From the NCBI GenBank assembly GCA_032718475.1, contig JAUCBJ010006860.1, positions 1 through 40,360 of the forward strand: DNA of 40,360 nt, written 5' to 3'. The position numbers and the translations under genes were made by a program. The DNA comes from Nemertoderma westbladi (lineage: Eukaryota > Animalia > Xenacoelomorpha). Positions 1 to 40,360 of this stretch are shown here, piece after piece (position 1 is the first letter of the stretch; each line of letters begins with the position of its first letter). A model generated the notes under the pieces. It did not search any database. It worked only from the letters and a program-made list of their open reading frames with translations, and was not told the origin of the DNA.

Positions 1-562
1 CAATTAAATTAAGTGAGTATGTTAATTAAGATTGATCAATTAGCGGTAACAGTTTATACTTTCGATAATTCAAGCAGTTCTGCAGTTCACGGTACAGCAG
101 TATCTATCTAAAAAATGCCGGTGTTTCTGGCTTAGACAGCAATAACAACAAAAGTAACAACTCTCTCTCTCTCTCCAGTCAGACCGAACACTCTCCCTAT
201 GATCGACAGGAAAGCTACACGTCGACAGGAAAAACCGCCCTGATTGGCCCAAGCCAAACAAAGAACCACGCTGCCAATGGCTGTTTCCATGTCAGCAACC
301 AGCTGCTAGATGTCGTAATATGAATCATCACGGCTAAGCTGTGAAAGGTGGTTTGTGCATTACAAGTTTTTGTCTTACCATGTCCGCTAAAACACGTATA
401 TAGCAGAATGATTTTTATGTCCGTTAAAACACCTGTAAAGGTACCTTGCGGGCGAGGGGAATATATATACAGTTAGAAAACCCTTTTTAGAGTATTCCAG
501 CGCCGGGGGGGGAACTGGCCAGCAAAGGCAAACGTATCAGTTATCCCACAAAAGCTTTTACA
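1..562 (-). mobile_element. Partial LTR of a third BEL/Pao-family copy (copy C; 5' LTR or solo LTR), truncated by the window start
   Basis: On the minus strand it starts TGTAAAAGCTTTTG at 562, the same terminus as the LTRs at 1953, 22200 and 35049. About 485-562 matches 35049-35125 and about 380-445 matches 1803-1868. It interrupts the Merlin transposase frame at 563. Confidence 0.85.
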
Positions 563-751: not shown

Positions 752-1953
752 TGTTCGCGCTTTCAGACCTTTAGCAGTTTAACCTGCCAAATTGGGATGT
801 CTTCTAGATAATAGATCGTCTTTAGCCTATGACAAGTATTTGATACACTACATTAGCCGAAGCCAGTCTATGCGCGATCATTCACCCGCTGGATATACCC
901 GGGAGACTGGATTCGGAAGCCTAACCGTATTGCGGTGTAGGCCTACTGTATTATTCGACTGATCGTAATATATAATCTCTGACAAATATTATTCACTCTC
1001 GGGAAATATTAACAGTTCCTTTAGGACGTGGCGCTCTAAATATGTAAACAGAGTTATGACTTAAACTAGACACAACGGGATGGCTATAGATTCATGTATA
1101 TGGCGCATTCTTTAGGAGATGCTTTGTTATCAGTCACAATCATACACAATACTGCACAATGCTGCACACCGATCTGCCGACCTTCACTAATTTTAGTCAC
1201 ATACAAAGAGAACAACAACCAATACATGTAGGGCCTATGAAATAGCATTAGATTCACTTCAAAACCACTTTAATGTAAGTCGCAATCGTTATATGTAACC
1301 GGTCTCTCTAACCTTCAGTATATCAAGAAGATTGGGGTGTCTGATTATTGATTGATATTCTCCAATATAATAATATTCCATCAACAGATATAATGAATAA
1401 CCGACAGTAAATAGCAGTAAAAATGCGGTGTTTGTAGTTGACAATATGATTAGGTGAGTGAGTTGTGAGATGCGTTTGGTTTGATATGATTAGTTAAGAT
1501 AACAGATATACATTCTATAATTAAGCCTACTAATGTTGGGCTAAAGACTGAAAACACAGAGATTCCAAAAGCCGGTCTTCTGGGCTCAGGACAAAATGTA
1601 AACATTGACCCATAATGCATTGCGCGATTTCTCGGAGGTTTCTGTACAAAAAGCAGGAGAATCGCTCTGATTGGTTGACCGAACAAAGAAACACCAGAGA
1701 ACAAGGAAAAAGCTACACGTGTACAGCTCAGCTGTTAGCTGTCGTCATAGTAACTACACTGTTTCAAGAGGATCTAGCGCATTGCGTCATAGAATTGCTA
1801 ATTATGTCCGCTAAAGTACACATACAGAATAAATGGCTTTGTATGTCCACTAAAACACCAGTACAGTAAGGATACGGCCTTTTATGCCTGTTAAACCAAC
1901 TACAGAGTACTTTACGGGGAAAATAACCGGCTAATTCCGCAAAAGCTTTTACA
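752..1953 (-). repeat. 3' LTR of copy A (1202 bp)
   Basis: Direct repeat of 20999-22200 with about nine substitutions by eye. The minus strand starts TGTAAAAGC and ends GCGCGAACA. Confidence 0.96.
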
Positions 1954-1961
1954 CCGCTCCC
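1954..1961 (-). promoter_or_regulatory. Probable polypurine tract
   Basis: Minus-strand GGGAGCGG immediately precedes the TG of the 3' LTR. Confidence 0.6.
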
Positions 1962-5840: not shown

Positions 5841-6265
5841 ACTATATGTATTATTTAAGATACGGTATGAGAGCAATATCGCACGAAGCAATGTCAGTGA
5901 GAAGAGGCAAGTCGTTTCCAAGGTCTACCCAGAGCTTGGTTTAGCCGAGACACGAGGATCTGAATTTTGCATTCCTAATACTCTACTTACCAATAATACT
6001 TGAATATAGTAGGAGCTTTATTGTACTTTAATAAGTACGGATATTTCATCTTACTGTAGTTACGTATTTGTAATGTAATACGGACAGTAAGGAAAGAGAA
6101 AAGAATTATTTCTCGCCGTCGCACTAAATATATAATATATAAGTAATTAAATAATAAACACTAATATATATTGCACTAATCTACTAAATAATCGCTAAAA
6201 TAACATTCTACTAAATAAAATTAAAGAAAACGATTATAATAAAATTACATAATAATACATACATA

Positions 6266-7021
6266 TTCCGTCGATGTTCCGGTAACGGTAAAGCTACGGA
6301 AGGTGGACCACGTCTATCACGTCCAGGTCTCTCGTATCGAGAGGCGCTATCTGCAAAGGGAGTACATACTCGCTCCGGGAGTCCTGTTTATCGTGAATCG
6401 CCAGGCGCTCAGAGTGTTCGACCAAAGACGGTAGCTCATCGGTCGTATTCACCTGCACCAGAACTTCGAAGGCCAGCTACACCATCGGCAACCTTGCGTT
6501 CCAATCCGTATCACGCCTTATCTGTCACGTCACAGGCAGGCAGTGCTAAGCGACCGAGACCGGCATCCACCTCCGGCGATGACGGGGGCGGTGGTCCGCC
6601 TGCCAGCCATCCTGACGTGCTGGAGATTCCGGTGGATGAGGGGGGGCCATTCCAGCTCCAGCGTAAACAACGGCGACGACATATCGTCGGTACCGGTGGT
6701 AGTGCAGGAACCGGGGCGTCTGGGGTTTCTGCTCGTAAAACAAAAGCTGCTCCGGCTAACATCTTCGTCTTCCGAGTTCACAAGTCGGTAACTACCGCTG
6801 ATCTAGTTTCCGATCTCGCTGAATCAGGTATCACAATCCAGGTCTCAGACATTGAAATAAAGTCCCATAGCGATACCAGATCGAATAGTTATAAGATATC
6901 AGTTCCGCAGTCTGCTTATCAGAAGGCACTCTCCCCTGAAACGTGGGGAGCTGGGATTTGTGTTCGACCTTGGCGTTATTATAGTAATAACTCGCAGGGG
7001 CGCATTGATAATAATACATGA
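6266..7021 (+). CDS. LINE ORF1, C-terminal part (5' truncated, no ATG)
   Basis: Frame is open from about 6266. Contains SYREAL and a C-terminal IFVFRV...SYKISVP...PETWGAGICVRPW domain resembling LINE ORF1 RRM-like domains, and lies directly before ORF2. Confidence 0.7.
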   Translation, partial: FRRCSGNGKATEGGPRLSRPGLSYREALSAKGVHTRSGSPVYRESPGAQSVRPKTVAHRSYSPAPELRRPATPSATLRSNPYHALSVTSQAGSAKRPRPASTSGDDGGGGPPASHPDVLEIPVDEGGPFQLQRKQRRRHIVGTGGSAGTGASGVSARKTKAAPANIFVFRVHKSVTTADLVSDLAESGITIQVSDIEIKSHSDTRSNSYKISVPQSAYQKALSPETWGAGICVRPWRYYSNNSQGRIDNNT

Positions 7022-7110
7022 TCAGGGGTCGTGATGTCATTTCATAATCTTTTTGTTATTTAAATTTTAGCATTAGCGTGTATATATTCTAAACTCAATA
7101 TTATACTAAA

Positions 7111-10100
7111 ATGGCTACCTCAAATCCTACTGTTGTTAACAATAGTTTTTGTATTTCATCCTACAATAGCACTGGTTTGTCGCCGGATAAACGGGAATTT
7201 ATAAATATGTTATTATTAGGGAGTGACATAGTCTGTTTGCAAGAACACTTTGTGCTAAGAGAGAATAGTTATATAATAAAATCAGCTTTTAGCGACTATC
7301 AGTGCATAATACAGCCTGCAACTTATCCCGTGAATGAAATCCGTGCAGGCAGGCCATCAGGTGGATTATGTTATATTTTTCGAAATAAATTATCTAAATA
7401 CATTTCTAGAATAAATGTGAAGAATACGCGTTTACAAGCAATACGTTTACATTTACCAAATGATAAACCATTGGTTATTATCAATTCTTATTTTCCGGTT
7501 GACTCGCGTGATAATAATATCAGCGACGATTTACTTATGACAATAAACGATATTAAAGATATTATTTTATCAGTTAATCAGTGCAATATTCTGCTCACAG
7601 GGGATTTTAATGCTGACTTCTGCCGCACTACGATGCACTGTAGTTTAATTAATCAAATGCTACAAGAATTTCAATTCGATCGCCTTTGGGATTCTTACCC
7701 AGTTGACTATACATATACATGTTTTAGAGAGAATTCAGCATTTCATTCAACGTTGGATCATTTTTTCAGTAATTCACAATTTTGTGAAAATATTTTTGAT
7801 TCAGGTGTTATTCATACTGGTGTCAATTTGTCATTTCATTCCCCAATTTTTCTTAAGTTTAAAGTAAATGTTTCAAATGTGCAATGCGATAGCAATGATA
7901 ATGATAATGGTAGTAATATAGGTGAAGGTAATGTAAAATTTAAACGTTCCACTAATGATCAGCAACGTGAATTTATTAACCAATTAACTATCAGATTGAA
8001 TTCATTAGCAGAACCGCTGCCTATGTGTACTCAGTGTAATAATATTTTTTGTAATGTTCCAGAACATTTGTTATCTACTGAGAAATATGCCTTAGATATA
8101 TTGGAAGCTATTGACCAGTGTAGCAGTAATATTTTACATCGTAGTAATGGAAGTAGGGGATCCCCCTTTAATCATCCTATTATCCCCGGGTGGTCTGAAC
8201 GGGTGAAACCGTTCAGAGATGATGCTATGTTTTGGCATTCCTTGTGGGTCTCGGCGGGTTGCCCAAATGTATCACAAAATAGCCACTTATATCATATGCG
8301 AAGGGTCTCTCGCGCTCAGTATAAATATGCTGTTCGCCGGGTGAAACGCTCAGCTGATAATGTGCGAAGGGATAAATTAATTGAGGCCTGCTTGTTGAAT
8401 AATACTGACATCTTTAAGGAAATAAGGAATCTCCGTTTCTCATCGAATAATGTTAGTTCATCGATCGATGGTTGTACAGACCCGCAGTCTATCGCCGATC
8501 GATTTGCGGGAATCTATTCATCTTTGTATAATCAGCCATACAATTCAGATTTAGAAGCATTGAAGGCACTAATTGATGCCAAGTTGGTAAATTGTACTCT
8601 GGACGATGTTCCTCGGGTTTCTCCGGATTTAGTTGCTGAGGGTCTCCACAGACTAAAAAGTTCTAAAACAGATGTGACTTTTGGCTTTGATTCTGACTGT
8701 CTAATCCATGGTCCTCCTGAACTTTGTTTTCATCTCAGTAATCTATTTAATTCCTTTTTGACTCACGGATTCGTTCCGCAATTTCTTTTGAATTGTGTTA
8801 TCATTCCATTGATCAAGGATAAGTTGGGCGATGATACAGTATCCGGAAATTATAGGGCCATCGCTTTGTCGTCTCTCCTGATTAAATTGTTTGAATGGGT
8901 GATGCTACTCGCACAGGCTGATTGTTTAAAATTGGATGAGTTACAGTTTGGGTTTCAACGGGGATCTAGTACCACTCAGTGTACTTGGGCTGCAACTGAG
9001 GTAATTAGTTTCTATTCCAGAAATGCAACTCCAGTGTTTGGCTGTTTGCTTGATCTTTCTAAAGCATTTGATATGGTGGAATGGTGCAAGCTGTTCCTTG
9101 AGCTCTTAAAGAAGGGGTTTTCTCCGTTTTACATCCGGTCTCTGTTATTTATCTACAATAATCAATCTTGTGTAGTGCGATGGAATAATACGCATTCTGA
9201 GTCTTTTACATCGTCCAATGGGGTACGCCAAGGGTCTGTTGCCTCGCCAATCTTATTCTGTATCTTACTTGATAAGCTGTTTAGGAAATTAAGAAATTCC
9301 AAAGTAGGTTGCTTCGTGGGGTCTGTATATTTTGGGGCGGTTGGTTATGCCGATGACCTATTTTTGCTATGTCCGTCCATCGTAGGCCTTCAGCATATGG
9401 TTAAATTGTGCGAAGAGTTTGCATCGGAAAACAAGTTAATATTCAGCACGAATCCGAATCCGGACAAGTCCAAGTCAAAGTGTATAGCTTTCGGGCGGGT
9501 CTGGGTTAAGCCTTTAGCGACAATTAAGTTGAACGGTTCGCCTCTTCCATGGGTTAAGGAGGCGCTGCATCTCGGTAACCTTCTTGACTTTAAAAACTCA
9601 ATGGAATCTGATATCGTGCGTAAACGAGGGCAGTTTATAGGCAAATTGAATGCCTTAAGGCAGGAACTATATTTTTCGGACCCGTTTGTGCTTTGCAATG
9701 TACAACGTAGTTATTGCACTAGTTTCTACGGTAGTAACCTGTGGAACCTTCTTTCGCCAACATGTATAAGAATTTTTAGCACCTGGAATGTAAATGTTAG
9801 AATGATTTTTGGATTACCATTTAATTCTCATCGATATATTGTTGAAAACCTAGTGCAGTTTAAACACCCGTGTATTATGCTTTACTCTCGCTTCGTTTCA
9901 TTTTGTTTATCATTACGTAGGTCTAACAAAATGTGCATTCGTTTTCTTGCTAATATATGTTTAGTTGATTGTCGTACCCGGTCTGGGAGAAATTTACGAG
10001 AAATAGGAAACATGTGTAACATATTTAATCTTGAATTGCTGACATCTCGTGCGGTATCTAATCTTACTTATGTACCGTTACTGAACGCAGATAAGTGGCG

Positions 10101-10209
10101 AGTTAATTTTTGTAGGGAAATTATTTGGTGCCTAAACAACGGAGGTATTGTAGATGGCTTTACCCGCCAGGAATTGAGTAATATTTTAAATAGTGTATCC
10201 TCATCATAA
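7111..10209 (+). CDS. LINE ORF2: apurinic-type endonuclease plus reverse transcriptase (1032 aa)
   Basis: APE motifs SYN, CLQEH, GDFNAD, LDHF, SFHSPI. RT motifs NYRAIAL, QFGF, LDLSKAFD, GVRQG, YADD. Uninterrupted. Confidence 0.95.
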   Translation: MATSNPTVVNNSFCISSYNSTGLSPDKREFINMLLLGSDIVCLQEHFVLRENSYIIKSAFSDYQCIIQPATYPVNEIRAGRPSGGLCYIFRNKLSKYISRINVKNTRLQAIRLHLPNDKPLVIINSYFPVDSRDNNISDDLLMTINDIKDIILSVNQCNILLTGDFNADFCRTTMHCSLINQMLQEFQFDRLWDSYPVDYTYTCFRENSAFHSTLDHFFSNSQFCENIFDSGVIHTGVNLSFHSPIFLKFKVNVSNVQCDSNDNDNGSNIGEGNVKFKRSTNDQQREFINQLTIRLNSLAEPLPMCTQCNNIFCNVPEHLLSTEKYALDILEAIDQCSSNILHRSNGSRGSPFNHPIIPGWSERVKPFRDDAMFWHSLWVSAGCPNVSQNSHLYHMRRVSRAQYKYAVRRVKRSADNVRRDKLIEACLLNNTDIFKEIRNLRFSSNNVSSSIDGCTDPQSIADRFAGIYSSLYNQPYNSDLEALKALIDAKLVNCTLDDVPRVSPDLVAEGLHRLKSSKTDVTFGFDSDCLIHGPPELCFHLSNLFNSFLTHGFVPQFLLNCVIIPLIKDKLGDDTVSGNYRAIALSSLLIKLFEWVMLLAQADCLKLDELQFGFQRGSSTTQCTWAATEVISFYSRNATPVFGCLLDLSKAFDMVEWCKLFLELLKKGFSPFYIRSLLFIYNNQSCVVRWNNTHSESFTSSNGVRQGSVASPILFCILLDKLFRKLRNSKVGCFVGSVYFGAVGYADDLFLLCPSIVGLQHMVKLCEEFASENKLIFSTNPNPDKSKSKCIAFGRVWVKPLATIKLNGSPLPWVKEALHLGNLLDFKNSMESDIVRKRGQFIGKLNALRQELYFSDPFVLCNVQRSYCTSFYGSNLWNLLSPTCIRIFSTWNVNVRMIFGLPFNSHRYIVENLVQFKHPCIMLYSRFVSFCLSLRRSNKMCIRFLANICLVDCRTRSGRNLREIGNMCNIFNLELLTSRAVSNLTYVPLLNADKWRVNFCREIIWCLNNGGIVDGFTRQELSNILNSVSSS

Positions 10210-10399
10210 TTAATTACCTTCTTAGATCTGCAGTACTTAGACATATCATATTATTTTATAATAGTGCTTGTATTATTAACCTATTGTGCTTTGTGTACCC
10301 ATCTGTATATTTGGTGTACGAAATTAAATTAAATTAAATAAATATAAAATAATAAAACAAATATAAAATAATATAGTCACACACCCACTCCAGACGCTG

Positions 10400-13300
10400 T
10401 TACGTTGGGGAGTCCCTAGATGTTTGTTGGATTAGGGAGGTGGTCGTGGGAAGAGTATCTTGTCTTCCATAGTTTCCGGAGAGTTCTCTGTCTCTTTCCA
10501 GTAAACATAAGCGACCAACTGGGCGATTGAGCTGCTGTGTCTCGAAGACAATTCCCGGTTTCTTGAAGTTACGTCGCATGACGACGAGTTCTACCGATCG
10601 CACCAAACCGTCATCCGAGATGTGAGTCTCGATGATACGACCTGTCTGCCACCGCTTACGTGGAAGATCTGCATCCACAATAAGGACCATGTCTCCAGCG
10701 CTGACGTTTTCTTGCTGCGCAAACCACTTCGTTCGAAGTTGTAGCGTGGGCAGATAGTGCTTTTCGAAATGGTCAGCGAAACGACGGGATAACAACTGCA
10801 TAAGTTGCCAAGTTTGCCGGCAGTATTCGTCTCCGTCTGTGATTTCCGATTGTGGGAGCATGGCTACAGGTTTCTTCAGTAGGAAGTGCACGGGTGTTAG
10901 CGCTTCCAGGGAATCGGGACTCGATGAGACTGGCATAAGCGGTCTCTCGTTGAGATAGGCGGCGATTTCCTCCATTAACGTCCGCAAAAGTTCGTCGGTG
11001 AGATACGCGCGGCACGGCACTATAAAGTGAAATGCGGTCTTCACACTTCTAATTAATCTCTCCCAACTTCCTCCCCACCAAGGGGCGTCGGCGGCGTTGA
11101 AGGTCCAGCTAGACGCTGTTACCTTTAGCTGATCGTCCACCTGTCTTTGGTTCCAATCTTTGACGTAAGCTTTGATTTCATTGTTGGCACCAATGAAGTT
11201 TGTTCCCTTATCAGATCTCATCGTGTTACTAGTTCCAAAGCGAGCGATCTGTCGTCGTAAGCTTAATAGGAAGCTGTTGGTAGATAAATCGTTCACCATA
11301 TCGAGATGGATAGCTCTACAAGTCATACAAACAAAGATGACACACCATCTCTTGACTATAGTCCTAGCACGATATACCAATAGGGCCAAATAAATCCACA
11401 CCGGTATTAGTAAAGGGTGGTTCATAGAAGCTTACTCGTTCCCTAGGTAATTCTGCCTCTCGCTGTGTTAAAGGCCTACTGAATGCTTTCCTACAGGGTA
11501 TACAGTTCCTAAGAACTTGGTTCAGAGCTCTACGGGGTTTATAAAAATAATAGCGAGTTCGAATTTCGCTAAGAACTCGTTCTCTACCAGCATGATAAAG
11601 TTTGCTGTGAACATCTACAATCATCTTGACTTGTATTTCAAGATTTCTAATGAGTATGGGAAACTTAGTGTCAAAGGATAATGGAGCATTTGTTAATCTT
11701 CCTCCAACACGTATCAACCCATCTATCATTGTGCTAGAGAAACGATCCCTTAAGCGCATCTGTGGATTTCTCAACAACAGGAAATACTTATCGGAATCCT
11801 CATAGCATTGCAGGAGTCTCAGCATCTGCTTGTTGGTTTCTTCATGCTCCTGATAACTGATCTTCTCCTTCAGAAACCTGTCGGATATCTTATATTTGGG
11901 AAGATCTTTAACAACATGGACCTGCACCGATGTTAGTGGAGCGGTATCACTATTGGTCTTCGTCCCGGAGTAGTGATGATGAAAACATCGTTTTAAATAT
12001 GTGACGGCCTTACAGAGCCGATTCCAGGAACTGTAGTGATGTATCGCTCTCTGCAGGAGAGGTGAGAGTCCTTGCGAGACGTCTGGTATTCCAGATTTCC
12101 AATCCTTCTCACGGATTTCCACTACAGACTTATTTGTGGCTGTGGGTTTCTAATCCAAAGCGTCGTCTCCGGAAGTATGTAGTACAGACAGATCTACCAT
12201 AGGTTTAAATAACTTCGATTTACTGGCTCGAGTTTTAGGTTTGACTTTCTCCGCTCCCTTGGCCTGTCTAATCTCTGCTGTAGTAAGATGAGGAGGCCAT
12301 TCTTCTTCTTCTTTGTAGAGGAAGTCAGGTCCACCTAACCAGTCTGGAGTATCTACCAGTTCTTGTGGAGTAGCTCCCCTGGAGGCGATGTCTGCTGGAT
12401 TGATCGTTCCAGGGCAATGTCTCCATTGATCCATCGTTGTGCGACTGAGTATAATGGCTACTCTGTTGGTAACGAAGACACTGAACTGACAGACTTCATT
12501 GGTTATATACTCCAACACGAGTAAAGCATCGGTCCAATAGACAGTTTTCTCCAGTGGATAGTCGATCTGTTCTGTTACATTCCGGCCGATGGCTGTAGCG
12601 TATAGAGCCGCTTTTAACTCCGCTCGAGGAACTTTCAACTTGTTGTTTATCAATGCCTTAGAGGTAACCAAGGCGACTTTGATCCCATCCGGAGTTTCCA
12701 CTCTTAGGTAGGCTACTATACCTATTCCCATATCGCTGGCGTCTCCAAACACATGGAGTTGATAGGAATACGTAGGGAGAACATGACCAAAATATGAACG
12801 GGAAATTATAAAGTTCTCGATGGCTGGTAGAGAATCTTCCCATTTCATCCACTTCTTTAATAATTCTCCCTTAAGTGGATCGTCCCGTGAGTGGTTTTCA
12901 AGCCACATTTGTTGTACTAAACTCCGAGCAATCAATATAACTGGGCTAATAAATCCCAATGGATCGAAATAAGTGCTCAGGATACTTAAACAAATCCGTT
13001 TAGTCCGAACTGGATTATCTCGCTGTTTTAGCTGGAAAAACAGGATATCTCTCTCTGTGTCCCATTTCAAACCAAGTGTCTTGGTTTCTGGAAGATCATC
13101 TTTGATTAGATCTAGGTCTTTCGCTCCTCGATCTTCTACTGGGATCAACTCCAGAAACTCACGGGAGTTGCTGGTGAATTTAGTTAATCGAAATCCACCT
13201 CTTTTTAAGCACTCTACCGTTCCTTTAGCGACATCAATGGCTTCTTCGACTGATGGAAGGGACTTTAGATTATCGTCCATGTATATATCCCGTTTGATGT

Positions 13301-16300
13301 TGTCAATCACCTCTTTAGAGAAGGCTTCTCGGTTGTCATCCGCAGTGGTGCGTACCACTGAACAGGCGTTTGAAGGGCTTGAGATTATCCCAAAAGCCTG
13401 GATGGTCATCCAGTACTCCACCGGTTTCTGGTTGAGATCTCCTTCAGGCCACCACAGAAATCGTAGGCTATCTCGATCCCTATCTAGCGCCTTGACTTGT
13501 AAGAACATGCCTTCTATATCTGAGGCGAAAGCGATTGAATATTGTCGTAATCTTAAAAGTATTCCCAACAAGGATTGGAGTAAGTTGGGTCCGGGTAACA
13601 ATTCAGAATTAAGGGATTGGCCCATATAGAGGGCGGAGCCGTCAAACACCACTCGTACCTCATGGGGTTTACCGGGTTTGGGAACGTAATGGTGAGTTAA
13701 ATAATACGTTCTCTCGGTTATAGGTGTTTCTTCCGGCACTCGCTCCGCATATCCCTTGCTAATAAATTTCCTCAACTGCGTTTGATACATTTCTTTAGCT
13801 GAAGAATTTGCCGTAAGGCGTCGATGTAGTTGAGCAATTCTTTTCTCCGCCAAGGGTCTGTTGTTTATGAACTTTGGTTCTCGCTTTCGGAAAGGTAGAC
13901 CGATTTCATATCTACCTTGATCTTTAAGAAAACGTGTAGTTGTCTCTTGGATCTGCTTGGCTCTTTCTTCTTCTACCGATAGGGCCTTATCGTAGGAATT
14001 GGGCTCTACAGCCTCTTGAGTAAAGAATCGTACGGCGTGTTCATCCCGAGTCTTGGCATTACAACGTTCAATGACGTCATTCAGTTCGTCGTTATAGTCG
14101 TCTCGTTCTGATGGACGGAGTAGCTGACATAAGTTCACTTGGTTTTGCCAAGTCTCGTTTTCCTTAAGGAGATCAATGGTATTCTCCTCATCGAAGAGTT
14201 GGTGGACATTGTCATTATCTGAGGAGTATGGTGTTCCCTCAGTTGGATCGTCTAACTCACTGCTCTCAACTTCCCATTCTCTTACCTGATATACCTGATC
14301 TTTCGGTAATCTTACCATGAGAGTTCTACGGGAAGGGCCAGTAAAGTACCAACCCACTCTAGTTCTTCCCGCATAAGCTTGTAGTGGTTGCGGTTGAGCA
14401 GGCCGTTTCTCCAATGTCTCGAGCGCTTCATGTGCGTTTTGACCGATGAGTATTTGCACTCCAGGGTAATCGGTGTTGAATCTAGGTATTTCGAGCTGCT
14501 GGGTGAAATCGTCCTCATCCCAGTTATAAGGTTCCACTTGGCTGGTAGCGAAGTTTTTTATCGCAACCATTTTTACTGACCTTATACTATGTTCTCCTAG
14601 TTCATCCTGGGGGGTGGACAACGCACCTACATAATAATCTGCTATTACTGTAGATTTCCAAACCTGCATAATTCCTGACATGTTTAGCTTAGTTCGGAAC
14701 TTGGGTTGTCCAGCAAAGATGTCTTCGGCTAGTTCTTTGTCGATGAATGTTCCTGTAGCCTACTACCGGAGTCAAGAAGGGCGTTCACTATATAACTCCT
14801 TTTAGGTCCGTGGACCCTTAACTGTACTACAGGAAATTCTCGGATTCCTACATTGGAAGTTGGCGCTTTCCAAGATGGTTGTCGATCAGAAGTAGTTAGG
14901 GTGAGGTCGCTGTCTGTGTCTTTTTCATACGTAAGTGCTCGATACACTGCGGTATTTATCATGTAACAGGATTCATCTTCGTCGGGGAATTCATCCGTAT
15001 AGAATCCTTCCATCTCAGAACTTTGGTCAGTGTCGTTCACATCACTGAATTGGACATGTAGTTCGGAATCACTTACCTGACTCGGGCTGTTTCGTTCGAA
15101 TTCAGTGTGCAACAAGATATGATGTTTCGCACCGCACTTTGCACACCTTGTGTCGGAGTAACAGGTTCGCCGTTGGTGTCCTTGTCTGAGGCAATTATAA
15201 CACAACCGCTCATCCCACATGACTTCCCGTCTCTCCGTTAATGATTTCTTCAGGAATTCATCACACATATTCAAACGGTGGGTCCCGTCACATAGCGCAC
15301 ATTTCGGTTTGATGTTACTTACCTTATTTTGAATAACATTGTGCACACTCGTTCTTTCTTCGGGCTTTCTCACCTGAATTCTCTTGGGAGACGTATGAGG
15401 AGTTTTTCTTACCTGTTCTCTCCTGTCATTGGTTCGAGACTTGAATTTACTTACCTGTTCTTTAGGCGTTTTATTTACATAATAAGATCTTTCAGTGTCT
15501 TTCCCGCTATCCTCTCCTTGAGAAGTCTGGCTTTCGCCGTCGTCTGTATAACACACTGGTGTTACCTTTCTCCTAGAAACGGGTTGCTCACTTACCTTGT
15601 TTTCCGGTGTCTTCTCTCTGGACTGCTTTAGGAGTTGTAATTTCACTTCTCCATCTAAGAATGACATGAGATCAGCCATGGTAGGGTCTCGTCGTTGCTG
15701 TTCCATCATATATAACACTTTCTTATCCCAGCGTGTACCTACTCCACCCTTCGGTAAAGTAGAGGCCACAGCTCCAATAACCATAGAACTCTGATATTCA
15801 TGAGACTTACCTAGCCAATCTAATTGTCTACAGATCTCCTGAATCTCATCGGAAAACTCTATAATCCCGCTGCTAATGAACTTTCGGGGCGCTACTAATT
15901 TTGCATACAAATATTTAGCTATGTTATTCCTATTACCATACCTGATGTTTAGTGTATCCCAAACTTGTCTTAATCCATCTGGATGTCCAATAAACTTTAA
16001 CGCCATTAACTTGGGAGATCCTTCCAAGCACTCGATGAGGAATCTAAGTTTCTCTCCGTTAGATAGCACAGAGTTCTGTATGTTATCTTTGTAATATTCA
16101 TTAAAAGGTAACCATTTCATCTCATCTCCATTGAACTTGACGATCTCTCCCACCTTTACCGCTTGACGGGCTTCGGTTCTAGCCATTTGACGCGTAAAAC
16201 TTTCTTGGGCCATCGTGTTATTTAATATCGAGTTATCGGTATATAAATTTCTCGGATTATGATCAAGTCTATAGGGAATATCATTGTCAACAGGTTTATA

Positions 16301-18565
16301 ATTACCCTTAATAGGGTTCACTATAGGAGTTTCTACTTCGCTAGCAGTATAGATGCGTGTGGGCTCCACACCTTGCGCATGAGATACTTCAGACCTAACA
16401 GGTTGACACATTGTTACCGGGGGTGGTGGTATACCCTTTTGTGTATTTACTAATTTATCGCGTTCTAATGTGATACTTTGCTGCACTTCTTGCAACTCTA
16501 ACCTACTTTCCCTTACTGTGCCCTTGAACTGCTTGACAGTCTCCTGCATCTGCCCGAGCAGGAGATCCATCCCCCGCCGTCTCTCATCCACCCCCTCGAC
16601 CGCCGAAGCGGGAGCCGCCAACGTTGTAGCGGGCGGACGAGGGACAACGGGCGACAAATCATTAATATTTCGCTCGGAGTCCAGAACATGAACTGTCTCC
16701 TGGGCTGTTCTGCTGGGCACAGGTAGCTTAGTGCTATGCAAAGGGAATCTAGAGGTAGGTTCTGGGAGTACAGGTGTCTCTATCACCGAAGGGGTGGATT
16801 CGAGAACAGGCCTAATTATTTCAGGCTCATCTACTATAGTAGGGAGTCTATCTATTTTAATAATTTGGTCTGGGGGTTCTGTACTACCTAAGTCTGTGCT
16901 AACTAGTTGCTTTCGAACAGCTGGGGGCAAATCAGGCAATTTCTGACGGTGGGACATTCTTCTACGTCTGCTGAGACGAGATCGATTTCCTCCGCCTTTA
17001 GGGTCTGTTGTATCACCTTCATCTGATGATGTAAAACCCTGTCTCTTGGGAGTAGATCGACTCATCATCTGCATTTGACTAGCTGTTAACTGTTTATTTA
17101 TGCAGTCCCGACTCTCCTGAATATCCTCCAACTCCAGTTGGGTGGTCTCTTCAGCTGCTCTTCGTTCTGCTTCTGCCACTGCTCGCTTTCTTTCTGCTTC
17201 TACTGCTGCCGCTGCCGCTTTTCTTTCCACTTCTGCCGCTTTTCTTTCTGCTTCTACTGCTGCCGCTGCCGCCTTTCTTTCCACTTCTGCCGCTTTCCTT
17301 TCCACTTCTGCCGCTTTTCTTTCTGCTTCTACTGCTGCCGCCGCCACTTTTCTTTCTGCCTCTGCCTCTGCTGCTGCCGCTGCTGCTATCTTTCTGTCTT
17401 CTATACGTTTTTTCTTTACTTGTTCTTCTTGGACTCTAGTGATGCGGAGGCGTTCATCAAATTCAGCTTGGTTCGCAGCTCTCATATCCACATCGATTGC
17501 GTCCAACACAAGCTTGGCTCCTTCACTGTTAGGGCTAAGTCCATCTAACCTTCTCCTCAACTCTTCATCTCCTACAAAACGTTGATAGTCCGACAGATAG
17601 ATATCAATAGCATCCCTCTTATGCGGCTTCTCTACCGTCGCTTCACTTTCCACTTGGGAAAATCTAGCGTCTGTGGATTCTTCATGGGTTGAGCGCTCAG
17701 ATAACTGAGATTTCCAAGGGGCAGTTATTTGAACTTGGAGACTCAACCGCTGTAACCAAGTCTTTACGGCAACTTGCAACGAAGTGTCTTGTCTTCTTTT
17801 CGAAGCCTCCTCAAAGGCCGATAGGATTAGTCTGATTCTTAGAATTCTTTCTCGAACTTGATAAAGCAGATCTCCCTGCTCTTGAGGTCCTTGTGGTTGT
17901 CCAAACAATTGTTCTTCTAATCGCCCCATGGAGCTGAAGAATCACTGTACGTATCCGGCTGCGGACCTCTTCCACACAGCTGGATCGATGGTTTCCTTGG
18001 TTACTCCCATCCTGTGTATGTCTTCCCAGGCAGCTTCCGATAAATCAAACGGGAGTCCGGGTCCGGGGAAGTTCCATTGCGACTCGACAATAGACTTCAG
18101 TTCTTCCCTTGACTACTCCGCATAACTACCCTTAGTCGATCGCTTACTTTTCGCCCAATCAATCTGGTGTTCCTCCACCGCAATCAATAACCTAGTGAGT
18201 ACGGCTGCAGGAAGGATGAGAAGGGGGTCCGAATAAACCGCATCTGTCATCTTTGCTCCGTGCTCGGGTGTCAGCTCTACAGTATCCGCACTACTGGAGC
18301 TGTCGGGCCGCTGAGAAATAAGTTCTCGGCTCGCGGGTGGTTGCTGTTCCGCTGCTTCTTGGTCCCGCTTGACCTGAGCTCTAGTGCCTATGACAGACCT
18401 ACGGTGTTGGACCAGCCTAGGTTCTGATATTACTACTGGGGGAATGATCTTTCTTACAGTAGGAGGTGAGTTGAACTTCAGTCTCACACGTTCCACACTC
18501 CTGTCTGGGTCACAGATGGTCGTATCTAGGAGACTGTCTGACAGGTTTTGCTTGGTGTCAGACAT
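10400..18565 (-). pseudogene. BEL/Pao gag-pol polyprotein (about 2700 codons), broken by stops and frameshifts
   Basis: Gag KFNGD...LSNGEKLRFL; three Cys/His knuckles (CALC..H..C, CYNC..GH..C, CAKC..HH); protease LLDSGS; RT YMDD; RNase H LHVFGDAS; integrase HHCC, GVDLFGP, SDKGTNF, PWWGGSWERL. In-frame stops at 18113, 17942 and 12150; frameshifts near 14760 and 11400. The first two stops are sense codons in copy B. Confidence 0.95.
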
Positions 18566-18699: not shown

Positions 18700-19182
18700 T
18701 TAGAATACCGGTATGCTTATAGTATATATATAAGTATTATTACAGACTAGGTTTGTCACAGAATACCGGTATGTAATTTCAGCCCAAATATATAGCAATA
18801 TATAATAAGCCTATCGTGAATACCGGTATACAGCTTACACTTATAGTATATATAAGTATAATTATGGATTAGAATTAATTACAGAATACCGGTATAATTT
18901 CAGCCTAAATTTATAAATATATAATAGGCCTATCGTGAATACCGGTATACAGTTTACACTTATAGTATATATAAGTATAATTATGGATTAGAATTAGAAT
19001 TAATTACAGAATACCAGTATAATTTCAGCCAAAATTTATAAATATATAATAGGCCTATCGTGAATACCGGTATACAGTTTACACTTATAGTATATATATA
19101 AGTATAATTACAGAATACCGGTATGATTTCAGCCTAAATTTATAGAAATAAATATAATAAGCCTATGGTAAATACCGGTATG
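18700..19182. repeat. AT-rich tandem repeat (about 60-bp subunits, about 120-bp dimer) with ATACCGGTAT palindromes in the retrotransposon leader
   Basis: (G)AATACCGGTAT recurs about nine times. A shorter array occupies the equivalent place in copy B (about 38135-38320). Confidence 0.85.
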
Positions 19183-20148: not shown

Positions 20149-20719
20149 AATATTACGCTACGCGTACAGACTACTCAAACAAAATGCAGACCAAATACTG
20201 ACAGACTACTATCGAGCCTAAACAAACTACGGTATATGCAGACTCCGAAATGGTTAGTTAGTATGCGTTCTAACCGAGTAGTACGACTTATTCTTTCGAG
20301 GGGGTTTACCTCACAGCTCTGGAAGCCCCTACGTTCCCAACTGGCACTTTATCGGACATACACTCTACACACACCGAAATCTCTTCAGACCTAACAACAG
20401 CCAGACAAAATCCAGCCTACAAATTATCTAAATAAGAAATATTACGCTACCCGTACAAACTACACAAACAAAGTACAGACCAAACGCTGGCAGACTACTA
20501 TCAAGCCTAAACAAACTACAGTATATGCAGACTCCGAAATGGTTAGTTAGTATGCGTTCTAACCGAGTAGTACGACTTATTCTTTCGAGGGGGTTTACCT
20601 CACAGCACTGGAAGCCCCTACTTTCCTAACTAGTAATTTATCGGACATACACTCTACACACACTACAGTCCCTTCAGACTTAACAACAGTCAGACAACAG
20701 TCCAGCCTACAAATTATCT
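20149..20719. repeat. Two tandem 289-bp direct repeats in the leader of copy A
   Basis: TATTACGCTA at 20151 and 20440; both units end CAGCCTACAAATTATCT. Confidence 0.9.
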
Positions 20720-20988
20720 GTACAATCTGGGCAGGCTTACACGTCTTCTGCTCAATATTAACCTACAAGTAAATAAAACTGACAGAAATAAGTAAAATCT
20801 CAATAAAAAACCAGGGCTGCAGTCCCTGATTAATTATTAAGGCCTACCGGTATATAATTATCAAAATTGAATAATACTGCTGTACCTGTACTGCTGTAGG
20901 TACCGGTCCGGGTGGTTAGGTAGTCAGGCCTACTAGGTACCGGTTGACCGGTACTTCAGCTTTATTGCCTACTGCAATACAGAAGCTT

Positions 20989-20998
20989 TATCTGTTAT
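20989..20998 (-). promoter_or_regulatory. Non-tRNA primer-binding site candidate of copy A (sense ATAACAGATA)
   Basis: Abuts the 5' LTR end, has no TGG, and is the exact reverse complement of 21746-21755. Confidence 0.7.
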
Positions 20999-22200
20999 TG
21001 TTTGCGCTTTCAGACCTTTAGCAGTTTAACCTGCCAAATTGGGATGTCTTCTAGATAATAGATCGTCTTTAGCCTATGACAAGTATTTGATACACTACAT
21101 TAGCCGAAGCCAGTCTATGCGCGATCATTCACCCGCTGGATATACCCGGGAGACTGGATTCGGAAGCCTAACCGTATTGCGGTGTAGGCCTACTGTATTA
21201 TTCGACTGATCGTAATATATAATCTCTGACAAATATTACTCACTCTCGGGAAATATTAACAGTTCCTTTAGGATGTGGCGCTCTAAATATGTAAACAGAG
21301 TTATGACTTAAACTAGACACAACGGGATGGCTATAGATTCACGTATATGGCGCATTCTTTAGGAGATGCTTTGTTATCAGTCACAATCATACACAATACT
21401 GCACAATGCTGCACACCGATCTGCCGACCTTCACTAATTTTAGTCACATACAAAGAGAACAACAACCAATACATGTAGGGCCTATGAAATAGCATTAGAT
21501 TCACTTCAAAACCACTTTAATGTAAGTCGCAATCGTTATATGTAACCGGTCTCTCTAACCTTCAGTATATCAAGAAGATTGGGGTGTCTGATTATTGATT
21601 GATATTCTCCAATATAATAATATTCCATCAACAGATATAATGAATAACCGACAGTAAATAGCAGTAAAAATGCAGTGTTTGTAGTTGACAATATGATTAG
21701 GTGAGTGAGTTGTGAGATGCGTTTGGTTTGATATGATTAGCTAAGATAACAGATATACGTTCTATAATTAAGCCTACTAATGTTGGGCTAAAGACTGAAA
21801 ACACAGAGATTCCAAAAGCCGGTCTTCTAGGCTCAGGACAAAATGTAAACATTGACCCATAATGCATTGCGCGATTTCCCGGAGGTTTCTGTACAAAAAG
21901 CAGGAGAATCGCTCTGATTGGTTGACCGAACAAAGAAACACCAGAGAACAAGGAAAAAGCTACACGTGTACAGCTCAGCTGTTAGCTGTCGTCATAGTAA
22001 CTACACTGTTTCAAGAGGATCTAGCGCATTGCGTCATAGAATTGCTAATTATGTCCGCTAAAGTACACATACAGAATAAATGGCTTTGTATGTCCACTAA
22101 AACACCAGTACAGTAAGGATACGGCCTTTTATGCCTGTTAAACCAACTACAGAGTACTTTACGGGGAAAATAACCGGCTAATTCCGCAAAAGCTTTTACA
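20999..22200 (-). repeat. 5' LTR of copy A (1202 bp)
   Basis: Direct repeat of 752-1953, followed by TSD TGTAT. Confidence 0.96.
21746..21755 (-). other. Candidate self-primer motif in the LTR of copy A (sense TATCTGTTAT)
   Basis: Complementary to 20989-20998 and positionally equivalent to 35490-35501 in copy B. Confidence 0.65.
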
Positions 22201-23034
22201 TGTATGTAGGTCCCTGTTCCATTGGTAGCAGACCATGGGTTTGTGGCGTTTGTTATGCCAACATTCACACCGCAATACGCAGACCATTCGTCGGACTGTA
22301 TCTTGGTTCCACCGGCGACATGTTTCTCCAAAATAGGATGGAGGGTGTCTGCATCACGATGCAAAACGTGGTAGAGGCGGATGTCGACTTTATTATCTGG
22401 CGTTTCCATACCAGTCCAAACACCCACGGCCCATCCACTGTCGTCCCATAATTAGATCGGGTGACGGAAAGTGGTCCCCACCAAGCAAACGACCTCGGTT
22501 GTTGGTGCTCCTCTTGCGTTTTCCCCGCAATAGCGTCTCGTCGATTTGGACGATATGTCCTGGTCCACCCATTGGCTCTGACTCCTCTTGATCGCGGTAC
22601 ATTAATTCTCTAATAAAATTGTACTAGTCGACAAGGGATCCATTGCCTTGCACCCCAACAATGTCGCCTAGCAACAGATGTGCAGTACGCATTCGAACTT
22701 CGAGAGCAAACGAATACGAGATGGCCAGAATCTGCCGAACCTCGAATCGACTCTTCTCAAACCACGTTCCAGAACGTGCAGTTTGCTTATCTGCTTGTGC
22801 TTATTAGCCTTGGAGCAACGCCAAACAAGCCGCATGAATCCCCTGTCTGCCTGTCCTTCAGCGTAATTTTAGCTTGCGCAGTACAACCCGGAAAAGAACA
22901 AAGACGTAGGGTTGGTTGCCCATTTTGTTGTAGAGTTCGGGGAGAAGCTCCACGCTTTGAGCAAACTCAATAGCGCGCTCCTCAGTCTCGATAAGTTTCC
23001 CAATCTCAATGAAATTTAATTCAGCCATAGTCAT
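22201..23034 (-). pseudogene. Merlin/IS1595-type transposase, N-terminal and central part, frameshifted
   Basis: Motifs GGPGHIVQIDET, RK..NRGR, WVFG and RDADTLHPILEKHVAGGTKIQSDEWSAY. A possible left terminus GGGTATTAG lies on the minus strand at about 23187. Confidence 0.9.
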
Positions 23035-33900: not shown

Positions 33901-33949
33901 AATCAAATTACCTACGTGAATTAATCCCATTTCTCACCCTAAAGTTAGC

Positions 33950-35048: not shown

Positions 35049-36252
35049 TGTAAAAGCTTTTGTGGGATAACTGATTCGTTTGCCTTGTTGGCCAGTTCCC
35101 CCCCGGTCGCTAGAATACTCTAAAGGGGATCTATAGCTAAAATAGTGCAAGCTACCAGCTTATTGGCTGATTTGCTGTACGCAGGTATCTGGGCTCTGTT
35201 TAATCGGCCAACCAGCCTAGGAAGGTTGCGTCATAGCCTTGTTTTTGTATCTCCCAATAGAATTTGAGTTAGCCTTGATTTTGACCTATCACAGAGCTAC
35301 TGAACTGAAATTTTCCTATCTCACTGCTCTTTCTCTGTGTTGAACGGGAGCTTCGTGGAATAAGGGTAGTTGGTATCCTCGTATAGAGTAGTAGTCACGA
35401 GTTTTTCAAAGCCACGAAAGAACGGCTTTGTAGTGTTTTGTGCTTTCTGCTTTTTAGCTCCAACACTAGTAGGTTTAATTATAAGGACATATATCCTTTA
35501 ACTGGCGGCTTGAATATCACACGGCTTTTAATAACTGACGTATAACTGCTGAAACTGCTAAAATTACCTGCTCAATCGATACTGTATACTGCTATTTGTT
35601 GTCGGTTATTCATTATATTTGTTGATGAATTATTATATTGGAATAACGAGAAATAACCCCGAAAACCCAATATTCTTGATATACCGAAGGTAAGAGAGAA
35701 AGGTTACCAATAACGATTGTGACTTATGTTAAAGTGGTTTGAAGTGAATCTAATGTTATTTGATAGACCCTACATGAGTCAGTCTGTGTTCCTTTTATAT
35801 GTGACTAAAATCAGTGAAGATTGGCAGATTAGTGTGCAGTATTGTGCAGCATTGTGTATGAGTGAGTCTGTTAAAGAAGCAATTCCTAAAGAATGCGCCA
35901 TATATGTGAATTATAATTAAGCCATATCGTTGTGAGTAGTTTAAGTCATAACTCTGTTTATATAAATAAAGCGCCACGTCCTAAAGGAACTGTTAATATT
36001 CCCTAAGGTGAATAATATTGTCAGAGATTATATAATACTGTCAGTCGAATAATACATTAGGCTTACATAGCAATAAAATTAAGCCGTCGAACCCAATCTC
36101 CCGGGAATATCCAGCGGGTGAATGATCGCGCACAGATTGGTTTCGACTAGTGTAGTGAATCAAATACTTGTCATAGGCTAAAAAGCGATTTAATATCTAG
36201 AAGACATCTTAATTTGGCGGGTTAAACTGCCAAAGGTCTGAAAGCGCGAACA
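35049..36252 (+). repeat. 5' LTR of copy B (1204 bp)
   Basis: TGTAAAAGCTTTTG...AAAGCGCGAACA, the same termini as the copy A LTRs. Confidence 0.92.
35490..35501 (+). other. Candidate self-primer motif of copy B (TATATCCTTTAA)
   Basis: Exact reverse complement of 36253-36264. Confidence 0.65.
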
Positions 36253-36264
36253 TTAAAGGATATA
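36253..36264 (+). promoter_or_regulatory. Non-tRNA primer-binding site candidate of copy B (TTAAAGGATATA)
   Basis: Abuts the LTR end, has no TGG, and can pair with 35490-35501. Confidence 0.7.
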
Positions 36265-37190: not shown

Positions 37191-38448
37191 TATTATTCAG
37201 AGTTTATGCGATTATCCGCAACATTCATTCCCCAAGTTTGTTCCTACAGTAATTGTGTTTGTTATACATACCGCTATAGTTAAATTAACCCCGGTACTAC
37301 ACGGGCTGCTTGGTGTAGGTAAAGACTGGTGATTTTGTGCATCGGTCACTCCAGCAGATGCCGTGGTTCTTTTAGCTGTTCAAGTATATCTAACTACTGA
37401 TTATCTGTTGTACAAGTGCTCGTACCTAATTTAGGGTTTGGTGTACAGTGCTTTCCGAAAGTAATTAGTGTAGGCATTATATTTGTGTTGTAAGGTGGTT
37501 GATAGGCACGTTCGATTAGCTCTATTAACTTCTAGGTGGGAACACTCCGTGATACATAACGTAGTACCTGTAGCGATACGGCTATAGGTCGTCAGGCGGT
37601 GGTATTTTCCTATCTGGACAATGCAGTGTACTTACTACTACTTATTATTTCAAATACCGTAGTACCCTGTCCGTTGTAATAACCAGATTCTAACCCTTTG
37701 TTAGAATGGTTTGTAGACTTCTTGTAAAAATACCCTAAAAATTTCGTATTTTGTGTTTTTGTAAATTTTTGTGTTTATTTAGAGATTGTAATCTCAACCC
37801 GAATTGTACGTAATTTGTAGTATTAAGTAACTTAGGTAAATTAGAATTATTTGTTTTAGTGTCCTAGAAGTAACACTTCACTGAAAGCGCACCGCTTTGT
37901 GTAGTGATTACTCCCCAGAAATAACAACATTTATTTCAAACATTGACTAAACCCATTAAAACGGGTATATATATATATTATAAATCAAATCTAACGATTT
38001 ATAAATAGTAGGCCTACCATATAACAATTAGGTCTCAATATCAGTTGGACTACTGCTTAACTAACGGCAATAAAGTAAGTTAAAGTAACCAAGTAACCCT
38101 AAAATTCAGAAATTCAATTATTTAAAATAATTGATATACCGGTATTTACGATAGGCCTATTATCTTATTTCTATAAATTTAGGCTGAAATTATACCGGTG
38201 CTTGTAATTAATTCTAGTCCAGAATTATATATACTACAAACTGTAAGCTGTATACCGGTATTCCCGATAGGCCTATTATATATTTATATATATTTGTGCT
38301 AAAATTATACCGGTATTCTGTGATAAACTTAGTCTACTACACTGAGTAGCAGTATCGGTAATTAATTACTAGGCTAGCAGTTAATACTGAGTTACTAGAC
38401 TTGCTCAGACTGTAATACAGCAGTAGACATTCAACGGTATACATAGAC

Positions 38449-40360
38449 ATGTCTGATACTAAGCAGAACCTGTCAGACAGTTTATTAGATGTAACTATCT
38501 GCGACTCAGATAGAGACGTAGAACCGTCTGGTCGTAGGTTCAGTTCACCTCCCACTGTGAGGAAGGTCATCCCTCCAGTAGTAGTAAAAGAACCTAGGCT
38601 GGTCCAACATCGTAGGTCTATCATAGGCACTCGAGCTCAGGTCAAGCGGGATCAAGAAGCAGCGGAACAGCAACAACCCGCGAGCCAAGAACTTATTTCT
38701 CAGCGGCCCGACAACTCCAGTAGTGAAGATACGGTAGAACTGACACCCGAACGCGGAGCAAGGATGACGGATGAGGCTTATTCAGATCCCCTTCTCATCC
38801 TTCCTGCAGCCGTACTCACTAGGTTATTGATCGCTGTGGAAGAACACCAGATCGATTGGGCGAGAAGCCAGCGTTCAACTAGAGATAGTTATGCTGGATA
38901 CACAAGAGAAGAACTGAAGTCCATGGTCGAGTCGCAATGGAACTTCCCCGGACCCGGACTCCCGTTTGATTTATCCGAAGCTGCCTGGGAGGACATACAC
39001 CGGATGGGAGTAGCCAAGGAAACCATTGATCCAGCTGTGTGGAAGAGGTCCGCAGCCGGATACGCACAGGGATTCTTCAGCTCTATGGAGCGAGTAGAAA
39101 AGCAACTTTTACAACAACCTCAAGGACCTCAAGAGCAGGGACAGCTGCTTTATCAAGTAAGAGAAAGAATTCTACGAATCAGGTTAATATTATCGGCCTT
39201 TGAGGAGGCTTCTAAACGAAGACAAGACACGTCGTTGCAAGTTGCCGTAAAGACTTGGTTTCAACGGGTGAGTCGCCAAGTTCAAGGAACAGCTCAGTGG
39301 AAAGCTCAGCTGGAGGAGCGCTCAACCCAAGGAGAATCAACAGACGCTACTTTTTCCCAAGTGAAAAGTGGGGCGACGGCAGAGAAGCCGCATAAGAGAG
39401 ATGCCATTGACATCTATCTGTCGGACTATCAACGTTTTTTAGGTGATGACGAATTGAGAAGACGGTTAGATGGACTTAGCCCTAATAGCGAAGGAACCAA
39501 GCTTGTGTTGGATGCCATCGATGTGGAAATGAGGGCTGCGAACCAGGCTAAATTCGATGAACAACTCCGCATCGCTAGAGAACAAGAAGAACAAGTAAGG
39601 AAAAAACGTATAGAAGACAGAAAGGCCGCAGCAAAAGCAGAGGCAGAGGCAAAAGCGGCAGCAGCAGAAGCAGCGGCAGAGGCAAAAGCGGCAGCGGCAG
39701 AGGCAAAAGCGGCAGCAGCAGAAGCAGCGGCAGAGGCAAAAGCGGCAGCGGCAGAGGCAAAAGCGGCAGCGGTGGCGGAAGCAGAATGGAGAGCGGCTGA
39801 AGAGATCGCCCAACTGGAGTTGGAAAATCTTCAAGAGAAGCAAGACGACTTCAGTAAACAGTTAACAGCTAGTAATATGCAGATGATGAATCGATCTACT
39901 CCCAAAAGACAGGGATATACATCATCTGAAGAAGGCGATACCACCGATACTGAAGGCAAAGGAAATAGATTTCGTCTAAGCAGACGTAAAAGAACATTCC
40001 ACCGTCAGAAATTGCCTGATTTGCCTCCAGCTGTTAGAAGGCAACTAAATAACACTAACTTAGGTAGTACAGAGCCCACAGACCAAATAATTAAAATAGA
40101 AAGACTCCCTACTATAGTAGATGAGCCTGAAATAATTAGGCCTGTTCTTGAAATCACCCATTCGGTGATAGACACACCTGTGCTCCCTGAAGCCACCTCT
40201 AAATTCCCTCTACATAGCACTAAGCTACCTGTGCCCAGTAGAACTGCCCAGGAGACAGTTCAGGTCCTGGACCCCGAGCGAAATATTCCAGATTTGTCGC
40301 CCGTTGTCCCTCGTCCGCCCGCTACAACGTTGGCGACTCCCGCTTCGGCGGTCGAATGGG
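38449..40360 (+). CDS. BEL/Pao gag(-pol) of copy B, N-terminal part, open to the window end
   Basis: MSDTKQNLSDSLLD..., homologous to copy A from 18565. No stop seen; absent from the ORF track, consistent with running off the window. Confidence 0.9.
   Translation, partial: MSDTKQNLSDSLLDVTICDSDRDVEPSGRRFSSPPTVRKVIPPVVVKEPRLVQHRRSIIGTRAQVKRDQEAAEQQQPASQELISQRPDNSSSEDTVELTPERGARMTDEAYSDPLLILPAAVLTRLLIAVEEHQIDWARSQRSTRDSYAGYTREELKSMVESQWNFPGPGLPFDLSEAAWEDIHRMGVAKETIDPAVWKRSAAGYAQGFFSSMERVEKQLLQQPQGPQEQGQLLYQVRERILRIRLILSAFEEASKRRQDTSLQVAVKTWFQRVSRQVQGTAQWKAQLEERSTQGESTDATFSQVKSGATAEKPHKRDAIDIYLSDYQRFLGDDELRRRLDGLSPNSEGTKLVLDAIDVEMRAANQAKFDEQLRIAREQEEQVRKKRIEDRKAAAKAEAEAKAAAAEAAAEAKAAAAEAKAAAAEAAAEAKAAAAEAKAAAVAEAEWRAAEEIAQLELENLQEKQDDFSKQLTASNMQMMNRSTPKRQGYTSSEEGDTTDTEGKGNRFRLSRRKRTFHRQKLPDLPPAVRRQLNNTNLGSTEPTDQIIKIERLPTIVDEPEIIRPVLEITHSVIDTPVLPEATSKFPLHSTKLPVPSRTAQETVQVLDPERNIPDLSPVVPRPPATTLATPASAVEW

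Follow-up and report, generated by a model that had tools for sequence, protein, structure and literature searches.

Retrotransposons A and B, two related BEL/Pao copies in a window of 40,360 nucleotides of Nemertoderma westbladi DNA (contig JAUCBJ010006860.1; the window is the whole stretch that was analysed), appear to prime minus-strand DNA synthesis with RNA derived from their own LTR, in a Tf1-like manner, and not with a host tRNA. We give this reading a probability of roughly 0.7, judged from sequence comparison. Self-pairing of the RNA at the primer site is well supported as a real feature by the evidence laid out below, and from it we infer priming itself.

Element A is a defective BEL/Pao retrotransposon

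Element A was delimited by self-comparison of the window and direct slicing (Table 1). Its two LTRs differ at 9 positions and the element has ATACA on both sides, so the LTR edge, which the original prediction had fixed by LTR–LTR identity and the target-site duplication (TSD), stands. The polypurine-tract position has similar G-rich ends in the relatives described below. Four Pfam domains lie above cut-off in BEL order (DUF1759, Peptidase_A17, Integrase_H2C2 and DUF5641), which bears out the predicted BEL/Pao identity. The gene order PR-RT-RH-IN is that of BEL/Pao, as are the types of the gag, RNase H ('Pao peptidase') and integrase-associated domains, and the combination of TG..CA LTRs, TSD and polypurine tract is likewise present. 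The 18-nt tRNA-Arg/tRNA-Gly primer-binding site (PBS) that the ICTV profile gives as a descriptive trait is not found in A or B; this is the finding itself, and BEL/Pao membership rests on the proteins.

For element A, 520 homologues were obtained, the best of them ~38–44% identical. Among the matches listed, all carry PF05380, and the named homologues come from corals, echinoderms, molluscs, ribbon worms and fish. The YMDD motif with the RT aspartates and four acidic residues of RNase H are present and invariant in 40 of 40 aligned proteins. Element A is defective, as judged from the frame break in the protease region, the stop after RNase H, the frame break in integrase and the antisense LINE inside it.

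Table 1. Coordinates of the features in the window
Feature	Position	Strand	Remark
Element A, BEL/Pao retrotransposon	22200-752	minus	delimited by self-comparison of the window and direct slicing
5' LTR of A, 1202 bp	20999..22200	minus	TG..CA
3' LTR of A, 1202 bp	752..1953	minus	TG..CA; intact motif at 1508-1499
Left TSD of A, ATACA (5 bp)	22201..22205	minus	right copy at 751-747
Polypurine-tract position of A	1954..1961	minus	G-rich; precedes 3' LTR
Candidate self-primer motif of A	21746..21755	minus	LTR 446-455
PBS-position segment of A, 10 nt	20989..20998	minus	flush with LTR end; exact reverse complement of LTR 446-455
Conserved A/B block (72%)	21745..21826	minus	stops one base past motif; flanks unalignable (40%, 33%)
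gag frame of A	14729..17941	minus	DUF1759; cysteine-histidine boxes by eye; ends in protease region at frame break
RT + RNase H frame of A	12150..14759	minus	Peptidase_A17; terminates at in-frame stop
Integrase of A, two frames	10400..12149	minus	H2C2 zinc finger; DUF5641
LINE (endonuclease + RT) within A	6215..10375	plus	antisense to A; A-rich tail
5' LTR of copy B, 1204 bp	35049..36252	plus	
Candidate self-primer motif of B	35490..35501	plus	LTR 442-453
PBS-position segment of B, 12 nt	36253..36264	plus	exact complement of B's own motif
gag frame of B	38416..40359	plus	82% DNA identity to A; leaves window at its edge
Third related LTR, C'	1..562	minus	starts at 562, extends past left edge of window; 92% match to B in its first 77 nt
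Third motif variant, in C'	46..58	minus	TATAAACTGTTAC, then C; PBS of C' lies beyond window

The stretch of some 4 kb that separates the LINE from the 3' LTR of A (1954-6200, minus) holds short frames only. No env-like gene was seen there, and neither the 153-aa nor the 105-aa frame of this region has a Pfam match above cut-off. The leader before gag is ~3 kb long in A and contains tandem repeats of 289 bp and 125 bp (18716-20719, minus); the 289-bp repeat is kept in B (36320-37201, plus), and ACCGGT sites recur right behind the PBS in both copies.

The surroundings are dense in transposons. An ISXO2-like transposase gene (473-778 and ~22201-22620, minus) has received both A and C', at points ~190 bp from each other; one piece of this gene matches PF12762 with 26.5 bits, just below the cut-off of 27, while the upstream piece is transposase-like by eye. 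LTR B interrupts a 377-aa frame at 33920-35053 (plus) that has no Pfam match and may be the gag of a different element hit by the insertion of B. The window also contains a satellite of ~70 copies of a 32-bp unit (30771-33021) and an acyl-CoA oxidase in two long open frames with few or no introns (26962-28050 and 29440-30561, minus).

The segment behind the LTR is complementary to a motif inside the LTR

No TGG of a tRNA-type site lies near the LTR end in the leader of A or B, as originally noted; the first occurs at leader nucleotide 186 in A and 275 in B. ARAGORN found no tRNA in the window, and Rfam gave no match over 19000-22300. The first 10 nt after the LTR in A and the first 12 nt in B were confirmed to be exact complements of LTR motifs that occupy orthologous positions in the A/B alignment. 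In both copies the base after the motif is C, which stands opposite the last A of the LTR, so the pairing ends at the terminal CA with a spacer of 0, again as originally described.

The strength of the case, as far as it can be read from the copies, is in three paired changes. Three motif letters differ between A and B, the three facing PBS letters differ with them, and a Watson–Crick pair is kept each time; the covariation that was called for is thus present between the copies. If placed and chosen independently, such changes would have a chance of ~3e-4. Altogether 4 of the first 12 PBS letters differ, including letter 11, which is paired in B and unpaired in A. The calculated duplex energies are –10.2 and –11.6 kcal/mol for the cognate pairs of A and B, against –5.3 and –2.0 kcal/mol for the crossed ones.

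How exceptional the match is within one copy depends on the null. A strict contiguous match of equal length was found at 0 of 250 other leader offsets in A and 0 of 250 in B, and was reached by 21 of 3000 shuffled LTRs in A and 0 of 3000 in B. Under a permissive null, which takes the best of 6 offsets and allows G-U pairs and spliced joins, the score was reached by 12 of 40 blocks in A and 1 of 40 in B; element A alone is therefore not significant under this null. We rejected a spliced primer in A or B, where the best junction scores (6–9) are below the contiguous ones, and also an acceptor-like pyrimidine-AG ~40 nt upstream of the motif in both copies as a conserved intron end, as it is not kept in C'.

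The motif lies at the edge of a conserved island. Identity between A and B amounts to 83% in LTR 526-1202, 85% in the leader's initial 60 bases and 72% in LTR 375-456, but drops to 40% in 21-374 and 33% in 457-525. The homology ends one base past the motif not only between A and B but likewise in C' and in two contigs of X1, one sequencing run from which contigs, possibly of DNA, were available. At the motif, one of these two X1 contigs ceases to match A right at 21745, and the second carries in its loose end a further motif variant followed by C; 5 differences in 40 nt occur at the motif in one contig. At the PBS, an X1 contig has the B-type letters at 20998, 20994 and 20993, and a loose end at 21012, once reverse-complemented, resembles the end of another LTR with a different PBS behind it that begins ATAATAGCTAT. 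As motif and PBS contigs of X1 are not linkable, they indicate variation in kind and not covariation.

The U3 regions look mosaic (22200-22181, 35049-35125 and 562-486): A and B have only the first 20 nt in common, while C' has its first 77 nt in common with B and a 63-nt stretch in common with A. The CCAAT-like boxes noted earlier upstream in U3 do exist, at 21921-21917 in A and 35254-35258 in B, but carry no weight as evidence, because they lie in stretches that are 40% identical and cannot be aligned.

Most distant relatives without a tRNA site carry self-matches, many of them across putative splice junctions

From an alignment of 40 Pol proteins we obtained 127 loci, 56 of which have a repeat on both sides of pol. 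Twenty-four relatives were kept, in which the 3' repeat has a downstream flank and an LTR-like appearance; left out were relatives ending inside the 3' LTR, circular ones, and L025, L030, L039, L097, L120 and L127, whose repeats are odd or broken. Sorted by eye, 8 have a TGG-type tRNA site ≤7 nt from the LTR end and 15 have none, the end of L014 being unsure. The self-match of each, scored as the best at offsets 0–5 with GT-AG junctions allowed, was compared with 40 blocks of the same leader. A score reached by ≤2 of the 40 null blocks was found in 11 of the 15 non-TGG relatives versus 0 of the 8 tRNA-type ones (8–39 blocks), with a one-sided Fisher p of ~0.001, computed by hand and inflated by kinship. 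Complementarity extends to most of the non-TGG relatives, as the original prediction would have it, and this strengthens the self-priming reading; four non-TGG relatives miss the threshold (L032, L041, L075 and L102). For this scoring L068 was trimmed to its last 450 nt, as its LTR start was not found, the computed end of L104 is a few bases off, and the LTR end of L026, L041 and L102 is not CA.

The self-matches of the passing non-TGG relatives are 10–15 bp long and mostly run across a GT-AG junction inside the LTR. Contiguous self-matches of 11 bp were found in L046, L085 and L088, and junction self-matches of 10–15 bp in L020, L026, L032, L043, L052, L068 and L087. The junction-type relatives have textbook GT/AG ends, with consensus-like donors and pyrimidine-rich acceptors. 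In L052 and L003, which pair over 12 and 11 bp, donor and acceptor form conserved islands in diverged LTRs. The sisters L082 and L083 have a common donor and acceptor, and the end of their exon 1 changes from CAC to TAA as the facing PBS letters change from GTG to TTA, giving 11 bp of pairing in the cognate and 8 bp in the crossed combination; their top scores in the block test use donors other than those from the alignment. Because the junction complements are absent as contiguous DNA, the pairing would have to be at the RNA level if the introns are spliced, and these matches together with the compensatory sister pair point to RNA-level pairing.

The helix starts 0–5 nt from the LTR end in all passing relatives, and the PBS sequences of the 15 non-TGG relatives are unrelated to each other. 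The loop is ~750 nt in A and B versus 88–250 nt in the relatives, i.e. 3–8 times longer. A spacer of 2–4 nt separates the LTR end from the pairing segment in L026 (6997-7541), L043, L052, L068 and L088; L026 terminates in TA, and in its 5' copy a CA follows four bases later.

A blind scan for LTR ends in 13 loci of undefined 3' boundary was uninformative, with background matches of up to 15 bp; of these loci only L003 was kept, since its end is homologous to that of L052. Metagenome contigs gave no match to a DNA pattern representing the LTR end, and no relative was found in the viral contigs searched. Among loci L080-L127, animal-type BEL elements occur in contigs of bacterial and archaeal genome bins, and probably represent host DNA.

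A tree of 36 sequences (fast search, midpoint root) places all labelled non-TGG elements together with A in one clade (SH-aLRT 89.8), apart from all tRNA-type elements. Element A, ~43% identical to its best matches, forms a long branch; its placement is only moderately supported, with 17.1 for its position inside that clade. In a FastTree of 115 sequences, A falls outside a group that includes the tRNA-type L019 and L044, with weak support. Both trees comprise unnamed loci only, without Suzu, Sinbad, Tas, Dan, Flow, Pao or Bel references, and L087 and L102 are in neither. Given the long branch of A, its unsettled place and the disagreement of the FastTree, a single origin of the non-TGG clade including A is plausible only.

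The transcription start and alternative roles of the helix

If A and B prime in the way proposed here, the transcript would begin in the 5' LTR upstream of the motif, right in front of it or ~100 nt earlier, and the motif would fold back onto the PBS across ~750 nt. Cleavage of the RNA would then follow directly 3' of the motif, the probable enzyme being, as in Tf1, the RNase H domain of RT, and RT would extend the new 3'-OH from the terminal CA of the LTR. In many relatives the pairing segment would form only after splicing of an LTR intron, the window family being contiguous and intron-less. With odds that we put a little short of even, the comparison extends to a large animal BEL/Pao clade that may do without tRNA priming: its primer would be the 3' terminus of a capped 5' piece of RNA from the element itself, in many families put together when the host splices out an LTR intron, so that splicing gates reverse transcription, and the window family would be an intron-less derivative with a 750-nt loop.

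Folding predictions depend on where the RNA starts. With a start 15–25 nt before the motif end, the motif–PBS helix has a predicted probability of 0.88–0.97 in A and B. A 35-nt start gives 0.28 in A and 0.92 in B, with 0.01 in A when a 180-nt leader is included; a 51-nt start gives 0 in A and 0.92 in B, and starts at 65 nt and 80 nt give 0 in both. The folds favour a start 15–35 nt before the motif end, but as end-to-end helices are favoured in such folds, this is weak evidence on the start. RNAalifold on a longer region of A and B did not recover the motif–PBS helix and its consensus fold was uninformative. Tf1-type systems have additional RNA structure around the PBS, a U5-IR-like stem. A second helix 5' of the core, apparent by eye, was not significant in the 12 elements compared (Fisher p 0.22).

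Promoter motifs were scanned with the textbook TATA and initiator consensus. Two of 10 relatives, L068 and L085, have a near-perfect TATA 43 nt ahead of the motif end, which would place the start at the motif as in Tf1. In 4 of 14 (L046, L052, L082 and L083), a TATA–initiator pair precedes the donor or motif by 90–110 nt; the primer would then be the 3' terminus of a ~100-nt fragment. Five relatives have such pairs inside the intron as well. In the window family, the conserved block of A begins ~80 nt upstream. Both A and B show TATA-like matches at –21 and –12 relative to the end of the motif, whose own 5' half resembles a TATA box. A has, in addition, a weak TATA/Inr pair, missing from B and C', that would place the start 11 nt downstream of the motif. 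For this family, where the indirect evidence conflicts, our rough estimate comes nearest to an even chance for a start well upstream of the motif; a start at or near the motif, as in the original prediction, is possible though somewhat doubtful, and one downstream of it is unlikely.

A downstream start in the 5' LTR would leave the primer LTR-derived but supplied by the 3' LTR copy or by an LTR transcript in trans. The TATA-like letters within and before the motif and the +11 pair of A are in keeping with this, the motif is present in both LTRs, and a 750-nt loop would be unnecessary. Yet the pair is missing in B and C', the pairs 90–110 nt upstream in relatives speak for an earlier start, and splicing in a 3' LTR would be expected to strip progeny LTRs of the intron, yet both LTRs retain it. 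We regard such a supply as improbable.

Covariation demonstrates pairing and not priming, and the ICTV gives the family as tRNA-primed (PMC8742986), so the helix could also be a real RNA structure that acts as a switch for translation, packaging or dimerisation or masks the PBS, with priming from another site or by a host RNA, for instance a tRNA fragment. The PBS letters that differ between A and B and the unrelated PBS sequences of the non-TGG relatives argue against this, as no single host RNA fits them; moreover, the helix lies in every passing case where synthesis must begin, and the tRNA-type relatives are without it. A helix of this kind, with priming by other means, is likewise improbable. 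A chance match or a functionless inverted duplication of DNA, for which one could cite the AT-rich 10-mer of A with its shuffled matches, a second 8-nt match at LTR 564 in A only and the false matches of blind scans, is very improbable and largely refuted by the three paired changes at an orthologous site, the difference between non-TGG and tRNA-type relatives and the junction-type complements that contiguous DNA does not contain.

Comparison with known systems

Self-priming by A and B would matter beyond the window. Annotation filters based on the PBS would miss such BEL elements; the elements would presumably need no tRNA supply and escape host control by tRNA fragments; and a splice-junction primer would tie reverse transcription to host RNA processing. 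Were an entire clade of BEL elements to self-prime, the mechanism would extend over all three superfamilies of LTR retrotransposons.

The reference description of Belpaoviridae has tRNA priming from an 18-nt PBS for tRNA-Arg or tRNA-Gly, with the caveat that replication is poorly understood (PMC8742986). Element A agrees with it in the order Gag-protease-RT-RNase H-integrase, the TG..CA LTRs, the 5-bp TSD and the polypurine tract, and its LTR length is at the upper limit of 1.2 kb (PMC8742986). Neither A nor B has the 18-nt tRNA site, however, and A is far longer than the 4–10 kb of the family, even minus the LINE (PMC8742986). In agreement with the original prediction, our literature search, which covered few subscription papers and neither Repbase nor GyDB, found no report of self-priming in BEL/Pao. 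The terms 'primer', 'tRNA' and 'PBS' do not occur in a BEL survey (PMC3118150), nor 'tRNA' and 'PBS' in the Sinbad paper (PMC554778); the PBS text of PMC8220671 is generic only, and the accessible part of PMC3601003 holds nothing bearing on BEL priming.

In Tf1, the RNA's first 11 bases pair with the PBS and RNase H cuts between bases 11 and 12 (PMC7175516). Tf1-type priming has been proposed for Tj1 of S. japonicus (PMC4600332), and self-priming is listed for fungal gypsy elements (PMC6934838). A and B resemble Tf1 and Tf2 of S. pombe, Tj1 and the Tf1/sushi and Tcn1 groups, as far as these sources describe them, in having no tRNA site and an LTR segment of ~11 nt complementary to the PBS at the LTR end (PMC7175516, PMC4600332). 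Tf1 differs in being a Ty3/gypsy element whose primer is the first 11 nt of its RNA and whose RNase H cleavage has been demonstrated, whereas A and B are BEL/Pao elements whose self-priming is read from sequence. The loop of ~750 nt in A and B and the splicing that their relatives appear to require are both unlike Tf1. We rejected membership of A in Tf1/sushi, since its domains are BEL-type and no chromodomain match was found; A is a BEL/Pao member that likely works like Tf1.

The earlier list of known self-primers omitted the predicted copia cases: outside Tf1/sushi, self-priming is predicted for the TAR lineage of Ty1/copia, including Houba and Osr-1, as it is for Tcn1 (PMC6317226). These are plant copia elements and a prediction only, as opposed to the BEL/Pao elements A and B. 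Taken with the copia predictions, self-priming probably arose more than once, and the BEL case would be a further origin or spread of it, not the first exception.
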